This document shows positions 2 to 60,173 of a stretch of DNA of 64,000 nucleotides, piece after piece. This DNA comes from Escherichia coli. Its GTDB lineage: Bacteria > Pseudomonadota > Gammaproteobacteria > Enterobacterales > Enterobacteriaceae. Made by a program: the position numbers and the translations under genes. A model generated the notes under the pieces. The model did no database searches, was not told the origin of the DNA, and worked only from the letters and a program-made list of their open reading frames with translations. Position 1 is the first letter of the stretch. Each line of letters opens with the position of its first letter. The DNA is taken from assembly GCF_045037415.1 (NCBI RefSeq), contig NZ_CP173438.1; one strand, given 5' to 3'.

Positions 2-193
2 CTGGATTTAGTAAACGATGCAGACGAGTTAGAAGAGCTGGTCGAAGATATTGCCGCTCGTTGTGGGCGCGATCTACGCGGAATAGAAGATAATCCGTTT
101 CTTCCCATCACCACGGTAGGTTCTCTTGTAAGTGTATTAAACGCACAACCGATGACCCAAGAGCGACGTAGCCTGTTGTTTACTCGGTCATAA
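2..193 (+). CDS. hemY: 3' end of a CDS entering the window (frame 2, stop TAA 191-193); position upstream of glmZ/aslA fits the hemY C-terminus
   Basis: Open frame from window edge to TAA at 191-193; assignment by synteny with glmZ and aslA, not by sequence recall of the protein. Confidence 0.5.
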   Translation: MDLVNDADELEELVEDIAARCGRDLRGIEDNPFLPITTVGSLVSVLNAQPMTQERRSLLFTRS

Positions 194-398
194 AAAAACG
201 CCTGCTCTTATTACGGAGCAGGCGTTAAAACAGGTCTGTATGACAACAAGTGGGTGCTTCACTCAACGTTGTGTCCATGGTGTCTGATGAGGCAGAAGCG
301 ACATCTGTCAGTGGACGATAAGCACCGTAAACGGCTCTGCGTCATTCCGGAGTTTATGAGGCACTAAGGCGAACATAAGAGATGGAATGAGCATCTAC
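192..398 (-). ncRNA. glmZ: GlmZ small RNA (207 nt), regulator of glmS
   Basis: Reverse complement begins GTAGATGCTCATTCCATCTC and ends in the hairpin AGCAGGCG plus U-run (192-198); matches remembered GlmZ sequence. Confidence 0.85.
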
Positions 399-20670: not shown

Positions 20671-21000
20671 TTACGCCAGGTTAGCGTCGAGGAACTCTTT
20701 CAACTGACCTTTAGACAGTGCGCCCACTTTGGTTGCCGCCACTTCACCGTTTTTGAACAGCAGCAGAGTCGGGATACCACGGATGCCATATTTCGGCGCA
20801 GTGCCAGGGTTTTGATCGATGTTCAGTTTTGCAACGGTCAGTTTGCCCTGATATTCGTCAGCGATTTCATCCAGAATCGGGGCGATCATTTTGCACGGAC
20901 CGCACCACTCTGCCCAGAAATCGACGAGGATCGCCCCGTCCGCTTTGAGTACATCCGTGTCAAAACTGTCGTCAGTCAGGTGAATAATTTTATCGCTCAT
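20671..21000 (-). CDS. trxA: Thioredoxin 1 (109 aa, WCGPC active site)
   Basis: ORF track 20671..21105; start trimmed to [13 protein letters not shown]. Confidence 0.95.
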
Positions 21001-21130
21001 ATATAACTCCACAGGAATAAGCCTGGCGTGTTGGTTTCGTTGTTGGTGTAACATTAACCAACTAAAGGTTGACTTTATTTCACCGGATACGCTTTCGTAA
21101 AGCAATAGTAAGCTGATATTCTACCACACT

Positions 21131-35917: not shown

Positions 35918-37438
35918 ATGTCACTGTCAATTGTTCATACCCGCGCAGCCCTGGGAGTAAATGCGCCCCCAATCACTGTTGAGGTACATATCAGTAAAGG
36001 TCTACCAGGCTTAACGATGGTGGGCTTACCAGAAACAACGGTAAAAGAAGCTCGCGATCGCGTGCGCAGCGCCATTATCAATAGCGGATATGAATATCCG
36101 GCGAAAAAAATCACCATCAACCTTGCTCCAGCCGATCTGCCAAAAGAAGGGGGACGATATGATTTGCCTATCGCTATTGCGTTGCTGGCGGCCTCAGAAC
36201 AGCTTACAGCCAATAAGTTAGATGAATATGAATTAGTCGGAGAACTGGCGCTTACAGGCGCTCTGCGTGGCGTTCCCGGCGCAATCTCCAGTGCAACTGA
36301 AGCTATTAAGTCGGGCAGAAAAATTATCGTCGCGAAAGATAACGAAGATGAAGTGGGGCTAATTAACGGTGAAGGATGCCTGATAGCCGATCATCTGCAG
36401 GCTGTCTGCGCGTTTCTGGAAGGTAAGCACGCTCTCGAACACCCGAAACCAACTAATGCAGTATCCCGGGCGCTACAACATGATCTCAGTGATGTTGTCG
36501 GTCAGGAGCAAGGAAAGCGAGGACTGGAAATTACCGCCGCTGGCGGGCACAACCTTTTACTGATTGGACCGCCGGGAACAGGTAAAACAATGCTCGCCAG
36601 CCGTATTAATGGCCTTTTGCCAGATTTAAGCAATGAAGAGGCACTGGAGAGCGCTGCGATATTAAGTCTGGTAAATGCTGAATCAGTACAAAAACAATGG
36701 CGGCAACGCCCGTTCCGCTCACCTCATCACAGTGCGTCGTTAACTGCGATGGTGGGCGGTGGTGCAATTCCAGGGCCAGGTGAAATTTCGCTGGCGCATA
36801 ACGGCGTGCTTTTTCTTGATGAGCTACCTGAATTTGAACGGCGTACACTGGATGCCTTGCGAGAGCCGATTGAATCCGGGCAGATCCATCTTTCACGCAC
36901 ACGAGCAAAAATAACCTATCCAGCCCGTTTCCAGCTTGTCGCGGCGATGAATCCCAGCCCTACCGGACATTATCAGGGAAACCATAACCGCTGCACACCA
37001 GAACAGACATTACGTTATCTCAACCGGCTCTCGGGGCCCTTTCTCGACCGCTTCGATCTCTCACTGGAGATCCCATTACCGCCTCCCGGCATTTTGAGTA
37101 AAACGGTAGTGCCGGGAGAAAACAGCACCACCGTTAAACAACGTGTAATGGCCGCCAGAGAGCGCCAATTTAAGCGGCAGAATAAACTGAACGCCTGGCT
37201 GGATAATCCGGAAATACGCCAATTCTGCAAGCTTGAGAGCGAAGATGCGCAGTGGCTGGAAGAAACGCTGATCCATCTGGGGTTATCGATTCGTGCCTGG
37301 CAGCGGTTATTGAAAGTTGCACGAACCATTGCTGATATTGATCAGTCTGACATTATCACACGTCAGCATTTGCAGGAGGCAGTTAGCTATCGTGCGATTG
37401 ACCGTTTGCTCATCCATCTGCAAAAACTACTGACATAA
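35918..37438 (+). CDS. yifB: Mg-chelatase-like AAA+ ATPase YifB/ComM
   Basis: ORF track 35888..37438; start trimmed to MSLSIVHTRAALGVNAPP; Walker A GPPGTGKT. Confidence 0.9.
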   Translation: MSLSIVHTRAALGVNAPPITVEVHISKGLPGLTMVGLPETTVKEARDRVRSAIINSGYEYPAKKITINLAPADLPKEGGRYDLPIAIALLAASEQLTANKLDEYELVGELALTGALRGVPGAISSATEAIKSGRKIIVAKDNEDEVGLINGEGCLIADHLQAVCAFLEGKHALEHPKPTNAVSRALQHDLSDVVGQEQGKRGLEITAAGGHNLLLIGPPGTGKTMLASRINGLLPDLSNEEALESAAILSLVNAESVQKQWRQRPFRSPHHSASLTAMVGGGAIPGPGEISLAHNGVLFLDELPEFERRTLDALREPIESGQIHLSRTRAKITYPARFQLVAAMNPSPTGHYQGNHNRCTPEQTLRYLNRLSGPFLDRFDLSLEIPLPPPGILSKTVVPGENSTTVKQRVMAARERQFKRQNKLNAWLDNPEIRQFCKLESEDAQWLEETLIHLGLSIRAWQRLLKVARTIADIDQSDIITRQHLQEAVSYRAIDRLLIHLQKLLT

Positions 37439-37461
37439 AAAAAGGGCATTTCGCCCTTTTT
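37437..37461. terminator. Bidirectional terminator between convergent yifB and maoP
   Basis: aaaagggcatttcgccctttt hairpin flanked by A and T runs. Confidence 0.7.
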
Positions 37462-37462
37462 A

Positions 37463-37801
37463 TTAATCGTCAGAATCGGTGTAGTCTTCAGCACCTTCAA
37501 CCTGCGGTTTACCGCCGGAAAGGGTGTGAAAACGTTTTGGACGCTTGATACGCGTCATATACTTGGACCACACGCGTTCTGCTTCTGTCACTGGTTCACG
37601 TTCGCCACGGCATACTGCTACGAAGAGTTTCTCTTCCTCGGTAACCGGCTCGCGTTTGCCAAGATCCAACTCATTGAAGGCATAACCATGACGCTCAAGC
37701 AGTTGTGCCTCTTTGATGGTGAAGTCACCATGACGAGAGAATCCACGTGGATAATGTTTATTGTCGAAATATCGATTAGTCGTCGTAAAGCTTTCCGCCA
37801 T
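37463..37801 (-). CDS. maoP: Macrodomain Ori protein MaoP (formerly YifE), 112 aa
   Basis: ORF track; [27 protein letters not shown]. Confidence 0.9.
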
Positions 37802-37826
37802 CCTGCACGCTCCTAATTCTTTGACC

Positions 37827-37843
37827 GAGCTAGTTATGGCGCG
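37827..37843. promoter_or_regulatory. Candidate maoS site (17 bp) in the maoP-hdfR intergenic region
   Basis: atggcgcggagtattag, reverse complement CTAATACTCCGCGCCAT, matches my recollection of maoS; location immediately upstream of maoP. Confidence 0.45.
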
Positions 37844-37919
37844 GAGTATTAGTTACGCTTGACAGAGTGTAAAACAAAACATTTAAATCATAACGACAAA
37901 TAATTTTGCGGAGAGCACT

Positions 37920-38759
37920 GTGGATACGGAATTGTTAAAAACTTTCCTGGAAGTTAGCCGAACGCGTCACTTTGGTCGAGCGGCTGAATCGCTCTATCTG
38001 ACCCAATCAGCCGTGAGCTTTCGAATCAGACAACTGGAAAATCAACTGGGTGTGAATCTTTTCACCCGCCACAGAAACAATATCCGTTTAACCGCTGCCG
38101 GAGAAAAGCTTCTGCCTTATGCAGAAACGCTCATGAGCACCTGGCAGGCCGCCCGCAAGGAGGTGGCGCATACCTCACGACATAATGAGTTTTCTATCGG
38201 TGCCAGCGCCTCGCTGTGGGAGTGTATGCTTAATCAGTGGCTGGGACGCTTGTATCAAAATCAGGATGTCCATACAGGCTTACAGTTCGAAGCGCGAATT
38301 GCCCAACGGCAGTCTCTGGTAAAACAGTTGCATGAACGCCAGCTTGATCTTCTTATTACAACTGAAGCCCCCAAAATGGACGAATTTTGTAGTCAGTTGC
38401 TGGGGTATTTCACTTTAGCGCTTTATACCAGTGCCCCTTCTAAACTAAAGGGAGATCTTAACTATCTGCGACTAGAGTGGGGGCCAGACTTTCAACAGCA
38501 TGAGGCAGGTTTGATCGGTGCTGACGAAGTTCCCATTCTGACAACCAGTTCTGCTGAACTGGCACAGCAACAGATTGCGATGCTTAATGGTTGCACCTGG
38601 CTACCCGTCAGTTGGGCACGTAAAAAAGGCGGCCTGCATACCGTTGTCGATAGCACAACACTTTCACGGCCGCTTTATGCCATATGGCTACAAAATAGCG
38701 ATAAAAATGCGTTGATTCGCGATCTATTGAAAATTAACGTGCTGGATGAAGTGTATTAA
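37920..38759 (+). CDS. hdfR: LysR-family regulator HdfR (279 aa), GTG start
   Basis: ORF track; [33 protein letters not shown]. Confidence 0.9.
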
Positions 38760-38854: not shown

Positions 38855-38930
38855 TGGCAGGGGCGGAGAGACTCGAACTCCCAACACCCGGTTTTGGAGA
38901 CCGGTGCTCTACCAATTGAACTACGCCCCT
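38855..38930 (-). tRNA. trpT: tRNA-Trp
   Basis: Reverse complement AGGGGCGTAGTTCAATTGGTAGAGCACCGGTCTCCAAAACCGG...CCA. Confidence 0.9.
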
Positions 38931-38938
38931 AATTAGGG

Positions 38939-39015
38939 TGGCGGAACGGACGGGACTCGAACCCGCGACCCCCTGCGTGACAGGCAGGTATTCTAACCGA
39001 CTGAACTACCGCTCC
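38939..39015 (-). tRNA. aspT: tRNA-Asp
   Basis: Reverse complement GGAGCGGTAGTTCAGTCGGTTAGAATACCTGCCTGTCACGCAGG...CCA. Confidence 0.9.
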
Positions 39016-39067
39016 ACCGAATTCTTTTACAACCACCGGTTTTATGACCGGCTTACTGCTTAATTTG

Positions 39068-39187
39068 ATGCCTGGCAGTTCCCTACTCTCGCATGGGGAG
39101 ACCCCACACTACCATCGGCGCTACGGCGTTTCACTTCTGAGTTCGGCATGGGGTCAGGTGGGACCACCGCGCTAAGGCCGCCAGGCA
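39068..39187 (-). rRNA. rrfC: 5S ribosomal RNA (120 nt)
   Basis: Reverse complement TGCCTGGCGGCCTTAGCGCGGTGGTCCCACCTGACCCCATGCCGAACTCAG...CTGCCAGGCAT. Confidence 0.95.
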
Positions 39188-39287
39188 AATTCTGTTTTAT
39201 CAACACGTCCCGTTATGACCTGTTGATTCAATCTGTTATCAAGCTTACTTATCGATGTCTCTTCCGCCAAAACATCTTCGGCGTTGT

Positions 39288-42191
<2,904 letters not shown>

Positions 42192-42384
42192 TCACAACCC
42201 GAAGATGTTTCTTGCGATTCATCATCGTGTCGCGAAAATTTGAGAGACTCACGAACAACTCTCGTTGTTCAGTGTTTCAATTTTCAGCTTGATCCAGATT
42301 TTTAAAGAGCAAATATCTCAAACATCACCCGAAGATGAGTTTTGAGATATTAAGGCAGGTGACTTTCACTCACAAACCAGCAAG

Positions 42385-42460
42385 TGGCGTCCCCTAGGGG
42401 ATTCGAACCCCTGTTACCGCCGTGAAAGGGCGGTGTCCTGGGCCTCTAGACGAAGGGGAC
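42385..42460 (-). tRNA. gltU: tRNA-Glu in the 16S-23S spacer
   Basis: Reverse complement GTCCCCTTCGTCTAGAGGCCCAGGACACCGCCCTTTCACGGCGG...CGCCA. Confidence 0.9.
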
Positions 42461-42545
42461 GTATCAGTCTGCTTCGCAAGACGCCTTGCTTTTCACTTTC
42501 TATCAGACAATCTGTGTGAGCACTGCAAAGTACGCTTCTTTAAGG

Positions 42546-44087
<1,542 letters not shown>

Positions 44088-59895: not shown

Positions 59896-60173
59896 TGCGA
59901 TCTACTGTGGATAACTCTGTCAGGAAGCTTGGATCAAACGGTAGTTATCCAAAGAACAACGATTGTTCAGTTTTTGAGTTGTGTATAACCCCTCATTCTG
60001 ATCCCAGCTTATACGGTCCAGGATCACCGATCATTCACAGTTAATGATCCTTTCCAGGTTGTTGATCTTAAAAGCCGGATCCTTGTTATCCACAGGGCAG
60101 TGCGATCCTAATAAGAGATCACAATAGAACAGATCTCTAAATAAATAGATCTTCTTTTTAATACCCAGGATCC
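59896..60173. other. oriC: Chromosomal replication origin oriC
   Basis: Reverse complement matches the classic E. coli oriC: DnaA boxes R4 (59906-59914), R3-like (59945-59953), R2 (59980-59988), R1 (60086-60094), three 13-mers, 14 GATC sites, BamHI site at 60168-60173. Confidence 0.95.
60108..60151. repeat. oriC DNA-unwinding element: three AT-rich 13-mers (R 60108-60120, M 60123-60135, L 60139-60151)
   Basis: ctaataagagatc, aatagaacagatc, aaataaatagatc are the reverse complements of GATCTCTTATTAG, GATCTGTTCTATT, GATCTATTTATTT. Confidence 0.9.

Follow-up and report, generated by a model that had tools for sequence, protein, structure and literature searches.

The chromosome-organising site maoS in a 64-kb window of Escherichia coli coincides with the core of the maoP promoter

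Two described pairings of a DNA site with a protein are among the closest points of comparison for the element treated here, maoS, a 17-bp sequence beside the gene maoP (yifE) in a stretch of 64,000 nucleotides of the Escherichia coli chromosome (contig NZ_CP173438.1; this whole stretch is called the window below). In matS/MatP of the Ter macrodomain, as in maoS/MaoP, a short specific site and a small protein define a macrodomain and restrict DNA mobility, and MatP and MaoP both come from a protein group reported to have co-evolved with Dam methylase. In the second pairing the palindrome parS is bound by ParB, a sliding CTPase clamp that also loads SMC. Like maoS, parS is an origin-proximal cis site with a long-distance effect along the same DNA molecule, although E. 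coli is without a chromosomal ParABS system and MaoP is without similarity to ParB. The matS site is a palindrome as well. Whereas matS occurs in 23 copies over 800 kb (PMC5023128), and MatP dimers, of which the structure is known, bind to it directly, maoS is non-palindromic and single in the window.

The genetics of the system were published by Valens, Thiel and Boccard in 2016 (PLoS Genet; PMC5023128), who mapped a determinant of the Ori macrodomain to the hdfR-yifE region and placed a 17-nt motif in the middle of its 118-bp intergenic region. In their experiments maoS and MaoP made loci across the Ori macrodomain less mobile and limited long-range contacts with the Right macrodomain. The constrained DNA had to carry the intergenic region in cis, with maoP acting in trans; inserted by themselves at an ectopic position, the 17 nt constrained a neighbouring marker, and markers on excised rings or on chromosomes lacking maoS lost the constraint. 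Removing yifB made no difference. Deletion of hdfR left the markers more constrained; hdfR is not required for the maoS effect and is genetically linked to it (all PMC5023128). A follow-up in 2017 described the site as unique and still called its mechanism unknown (PMC5441646), and no mechanistic or structural paper on MaoP/maoS later than 2017 was found in the literature searched. In a review from 2019, MaoP is identified with YifB, the neighbouring AAA+ Mg-chelatase-like protein (PMC6389857); MaoP is YifE.

In the window, a search with up to three mismatches allowed gave a single match to CTAATACTCCGCGCCAT, an exact one on the minus strand. The published maoS motif is the same sequence, letter for letter (PMC5023128). 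This agreement supports the interpretation given in a prior sequence-only reading, which had named the 17-mer maoS, and it means that the element is already known. The consensus used there proved accurate; the coordinates did not. The site had been put at 37827-37843, 26 bp from maoP, coordinates that are 9 bp too low for the actual 37836..37852, and the gap to the maoP ATG (37801..37799, minus strand) measures 34 bp (37802..37835). The interval 37827..37843 reads GAGCTAGTTATGGCGCG, with the reverse complement CGCGCCATAACTAGCTC, and shares 8 nt with the true site. The position upstream of maoP was correct, and the open reading frame downstream of the site is confirmed as MaoP by Pfam (DUF413, E 2.4e-38) and by the NCBIfam equivalog NF008251 (253.6 bits; cut-off 181). 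Comparison with the published site turned up neither a different sequence nor a different place, so the assignment was not refuted. Chance origin is excluded because only about 7e-6 exact matches to a 17-mer are expected by calculation in 2 x 64 kb, and the surrounding context is conserved. The 17-mer is the already described maoS, the cis site of the MaoP/maoS system.

The host of the window belongs to a different E. coli lineage from K-12, and the two maoS sites show no sequence difference. All 17 nt are the same, as are the distance to oriC, the neighbours (yifB, maoP, hdfR and rrnC) and the 118-bp intergenic region, which has 100% identity with its counterpart in K-12 MG1655 (there, maoS is NC_000913.3 3948035..3948051). 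The MaoP-dependent cis constraint on DNA mobility was thus shown with a K-12 sequence identical to that of the window (PMC5023128). Over the 1 kb around maoS, the window is 100% identical to Nissle 1917 / ATCC 11775-type genomes. This 1-kb region was found in 5425/5426 complete E. coli genomes with the annotation yifB, maoP and hdfR, and the locus carries the maoP annotation in 5425 of them. The divergent LysR-type gene matches the NCBIfam equivalog for HdfR with 533.6 bits, and the rrnC operon comes after it. As expected of the published site, maoS lies in the Ori region near oriC (about 22 kb away). The origin is marked by the 13-mer GATCTATTTATTT at 60139..60151, by DnaA boxes at 59906, 59980 and 60086, and by a density of 12-13 GATC sequences per 300 bp where 1.5 would be expected, roughly 8 times the average of the window.

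Beyond its published role, the site is part of a promoter. A promoter scan of 37400..38100 found TTTACA-17-AATACT as the sole sigma-70-like site, although one hit is no more than chance would give for a region of this size. Its hexamers and their spacing, however, are kept in the Enterobacterales loci described below. In K-12, full-length sequencing of 5'-capped RNA (SMRT-Cappable-seq) recorded a forward transcript at 3948049..3948450 that covers b3764 (maoP), with 38 transcription start site reads, and a reverse transcript at 3947099..3947992 that covers b4480 (hdfR), with 37 such reads (PMC6131387 Supplementary Data 1). When transferred through the identical intergenic region, NC_000913.3 3948049 is base 15 of maoS (window 37838), or base 16 if the published table is 0-based. 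Taking base 15 as +1 puts the -10 hexamer at the canonical -12 to -7, and maoS then spans -14 to +3, holding the -10 AATACT, the GC-rich discriminator CCGCGC and the start site. The 17-bp spacing of the hexamers and the distance of the start past the -10 fall within the ranges of a sigma-70 core promoter (16-18 bp and 6-8 nt). With the mapped maoP start inside it, maoS therefore coincides with the -10/discriminator/+1 core, from -14 to +3, of a sigma-70-type maoP promoter. At sigma-70 promoters this span is essentially the stretch melted by polymerase in the open complex. The overlap is not stated in the maoS literature searched; curated databases may note it.

The promoter of hdfR is entangled with that of maoP. 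The start G of hdfR lies 7 nt after TTAAAT and agrees with the position of the perfect -35 hexamer (Table 1), which is conserved in most Enterobacterales, reading TGTCAA on the maoP strand. A distance of 57 bp separates the maoP and hdfR starts, and each -35 stands inside the spacer of the other promoter, a back-to-back interlock over 37845..37895. Because of this geometry, two polymerases are unlikely to sit on both promoters at once. Neither dyad symmetry nor repeats were found in the hdfR-maoP intergenic region, and maoS itself is not a palindrome.

Table 1. Positions of the features of the maoS locus and of oriC in the 64-kb window
Feature	Position	Strand	Evidence or remark
maoS, CTAATACTCCGCGCCAT, 17 bp	37836..37852	-	sole match in the window; equals published maoS (PMC5023128)
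maoP (yifE) coding sequence, 112 aa, trans-acting partner	37463..37801	-	open reading frame; Pfam DUF413; NCBIfam NF008251
hdfR-maoP intergenic region, 118 bp	37802..37919		holds maoS and both divergent promoters
hdfR, LysR-type regulator divergent from maoP	37920..38759	+	open reading frame; Pfam HTH_1 and LysR_substrate; NCBIfam
maoP promoter -35, TTTACA	37868..37873	-	promoter scan
maoP promoter -10, AATACT, maoS positions 3-8	37845..37850	-	promoter scan; -12 to -7 from the mapped start
maoP transcription start	37837..37838	-	SMRT-Cappable-seq, mapped via the identical intergenic region
hdfR promoter -35, TTGACA (perfect), in the maoP promoter spacer	37859..37864	+	read from the sequence
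hdfR -10 region, TTAAAT (37883..37888), and start G (37895)	37883..37895	+	SMRT-Cappable-seq mapping
oriC	59900..60151		about 22 kb from maoS; 13-mer, DnaA boxes, GATC density

In its layout, maoS resembles the rrn P1-type sigma-70 promoters, in which a -10 hexamer is followed by a GC-rich discriminator (in maoS, AATACT CCGCGC with the start C at +1). The corresponding part of rrnB P1 reads TATAAT GCGCCACC. As a point of difference, the literature searched yielded no report of stringent or growth-rate control for maoP. Ordinary sigma-70 promoters, unlike maoS, have no effect on DNA mobility at a distance.

Conservation of the 17-mer upstream of maoP was examined in loci taken from one genome per species. 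The loci were retrieved via the MaoP protein, so that the count is unbiased by the site itself, and the best 80 of 519 relatives were kept (Enterobacteriaceae and some Erwiniaceae). The 17-mer is exact in 79/80 of these loci, with one mismatch (position 2) in the remaining one, and the distance from maoS to the ATG is 33-38 bp in all 80. Each related locus examined carries one copy. Farther out, the 17-mer is also exact in Serratia, Xenorhabdus, Providencia, Erwinia amylovora, Morganella and Leminorella; in the lineages beyond the 80 that have the exact 17-mer, maoP shares just 36-57% of its third codon positions with E. coli. The bases flanking the 17-mer vary among these loci, and therefore the conserved block consists of maoS and one following A. 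The Plesiomonas site matches at 16/17 positions. In all Enterobacterales loci read, the promoter hexamers and their 17-bp spacing are retained, with TTGACG and TGGACG as the only variants of the -35, and the gene order hdfR-maoP-yifB is kept across the order.

Among the 5425 E. coli genomes that carry the 118-bp intergenic region, its identity is nowhere below 99%, and the surrounding, mostly coding, 1 kb (37300..38300) reaches only 95-99% in 4385 of them. By these comparisons, maoS is under extreme purifying selection throughout Enterobacterales. Across Enterobacteriaceae, a block of about 75 nt (TTTGTCGT..GATTTAAATGTTTTGTTTTACA..TGTCAA..maoS) is almost invariant, which suggests that there may be further binding sites besides maoS.

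Metagenome contigs contain at least 120 stretches with the exact 17-mer, and 109 of those among the matches listed are in hdfR-maoP context. The other 11 listed stretches are scattered, as chance predicts in so large a collection. Four of these 11 (L102, L113, L167 and L182), from unrelated organisms, fall inside an asparaginyl-tRNA-synthetase-like coding motif (…FRAENSNTPRHLAEFWM…); these were rejected as maoS sites and regarded as coincidental. Several PLSDB and phage-collection records carrying maoP (among H31-H43) seem to be complete chromosomes or contigs of chromosomal origin (90-140 kb long, in one case 3 kb). From their sizes, hosts and annotation, these records are probably mislabelled. 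A mobile-element or plasmid origin of the locus was rejected, the matches in plasmid and phage collections looking like mislabelled chromosomal records. In most of the draft genomes among the loci (L001-L080), the contig breaks off just past hdfR, at about 1.1-1.6 kb upstream of maoP, presumably because assemblies are interrupted by the neighbouring rrnC ribosomal operon.

Outside Enterobacterales, distant DUF413 genes encoding proteins with 32-41% identity to MaoP occur on an Aeromonas chromosome, on the Aliivibrio salmonicida plasmid pVSAL320 and, in Vibrio and Photobacterium, on replicons of chromosome-2 size. No maoS-like 17-mer within five mismatches was present in the Aeromonas, Vibrio, Photobacterium or Aliivibrio DUF413 loci. 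In two metagenomic loci with 50-55% MaoP identity, the best matches had 5 (on the opposite strand) and 6 mismatches, and neither was at a relevant position. The Vibrio DUF413 gene is divergent from a LysR gene in 4/5 loci, with a LysR protein 33-35% identical to HdfR. Upstream of the Vibrio genes (L209, L213, L214, L215 and L217), GTTTTGTTTT is followed 27-28 nt later by CTAATTTTCGCC(N)TA, a pattern from which V. aquimaris (L209) deviates with CTACTTTTCGTTTTA. In E. coli the GTTTTGTTTT block stands 27 nt before CTAATACTCCGCGCCATA, the spacing seen in Vibrio, and the Vibrio element is possibly a maoS-like promoter core that has diverged. Replicons of chromosome-2 size carry at least L209 and L214.

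A 50%-identical metagenomic homologue has TTTTGTTTTACC-17-GATACT-CCCCGAAAAG. Because the Vibrio and metagenomic loci share the layout without the 17-mer, the promoter architecture seems, in this small sample, to be older than the exact maoS, which is fixed only in Enterobacterales. On pVSAL320 (L210, 30.8 kb, a genuine small plasmid), the DUF413 gene lies beside a recombinase gene and has TTTTGTTTTACA upstream, without a GC-rich maoS-like tail.

An exhaustive search of representatives returned 513 members of the MaoP family at E<=1e-3, and an alignment of 114 sequences was used for modelling. The MaoP model has an overall predicted local distance difference test score (pLDDT) of 77.7, rising to 86-90 over residues 11-80, and contains helices at 21-24, 29-47, 55-64 and 73-86; from about residue 90 it runs into a low-confidence C-terminal tail with an acidic end. 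The fairly confident model gave no match to any solved fold, and no relatives of MaoP among solved structures were found by PDB sequence search or by profile search with 16- and 114-sequence profiles.

Taken with the published genetics, these results make us highly confident that maoS is the cis-acting site of the E. coli MaoP/maoS system; most likely, a MaoP-dependent complex nucleated there acts in cis on the Ori region. In mechanistic terms, maoS would be an asymmetric recognition site that nucleates this complex. Its occupancy would be coupled to transcription of maoP and hdfR, because maoS is also the core promoter of maoP. The spread of the effect over hundreds of kilobases could proceed by tracking or loop extrusion from maoS, which was proposed by the discoverers of the site and is the leading idea. 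Several mutant phenotypes bear on the transcriptional side of this scheme. A yifE Q100stop allele raises hdfR and gltB mRNA (PMC8674398); deletions of hdfR and of maoP affect an RpoS-dependent reporter to a nearly identical, intermediate degree, and the two co-enrich in a fitness screen (PMC11188689); and hdfR and maoP were both among the hits of a Yersinia pestis adherence screen (PMC7407073). Such phenotypes are compatible with mutual influence between MaoP action and two interlocked promoters at one site.

The main live alternative, which we regard as doubtful, gives the promoter a direct part in chromosome organisation. The RNA polymerase-sigma70 complex on maoS, or the melted bubble, might itself act in cis, and MaoP might conceivably recognise or stabilise this complex or the single-stranded -10/discriminator, nucleating the organisation of the Ori region. 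That maoS covers -14 to +3, essentially the segment unwound in an open complex, is what such an arrangement would look like, and the asymmetry of the site with its lack of a dyad, the want of a recognisable DNA-binding fold in MaoP and the invariance of the discriminator across Enterobacterales, beyond ordinary promoter needs, all point the same way. So does the altered hdfR transcription that follows loss of the MaoP C-terminus (PMC8674398). The alternative is kept at this low standing because the 17 nt sufficed at an ectopic site: without a -35 hexamer they constrained the neighbouring marker (PMC5023128), and a -10 with a GC-rich discriminator but no -35 would make a very weak promoter. Searches of the literature for links of MaoP to RNA polymerase or guanosine tetraphosphate (ppGpp) returned only noise, with no MaoP-RNA polymerase interaction found. 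In an extended and equally tentative form, the diverged GTTTTGTTTT-N18-CTAATTTTCGCCNTA may do likewise for the LysR-paired DUF413 genes of Vibrio.

Much less probable is that the 17-mer is merely the core promoter of maoP, its cis role reflecting the need for MaoP expression. The mapped start and the -10 hexamer do fall inside the 17-mer. Against this, when maoP and the intergenic region were supplied on a plasmid, the chromosomal intergenic region was still required in cis, the 17 nt moved the constraint to an ectopic region, and markers of an excised molecule without maoS lost it (PMC5023128). The order-wide invariance of the discriminator and of +1 to +3 likewise exceeds what a promoter needs. 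We rejected this explanation as already contradicted by the ectopic-insertion and ring-excision experiments (PMC5023128). Least credible of all is an operator for the divergent LysR-type HdfR: the arrangement is classic for a LysR gene and the LysR-DUF413 pairing is retained even in Vibrio, but the 17-mer has no dyad symmetry or T-N11-A-type inverted repeat, deletion of hdfR increases the constraint instead of abolishing it (PMC5023128), and Morganella has lost the hdfR -35 with maoS still exact.

Elsewhere in the window, Rfam matches include the GlmZ small RNA (192..398), the trxA 5'-untranslated-region thermometer (20971..21070) and a match to the Rev39 5'-untranslated-region family (35347..35636), just upstream of yifB and probably the ilv leader region. 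The rrnC operon (38858..44087) is made up of 16S, tRNA, 23S and 5S genes followed by two tRNA genes, aspT and trpT in K-12.

With the site and its function in print since 2016, the finding of maoS is not itself new, and the gain for annotation is that a known chromosome-organising site is now correctly placed in the window. To this the present analysis adds a point backed by data: maoS is also the -14 to +3 core of a maoP promoter that is interlocked with the promoter of hdfR. The overlap allows point mutations to separate the action of MaoP on duplex DNA from its action on a promoter complex, and it may explain the transcriptional phenotypes common to hdfR and maoP mutants.
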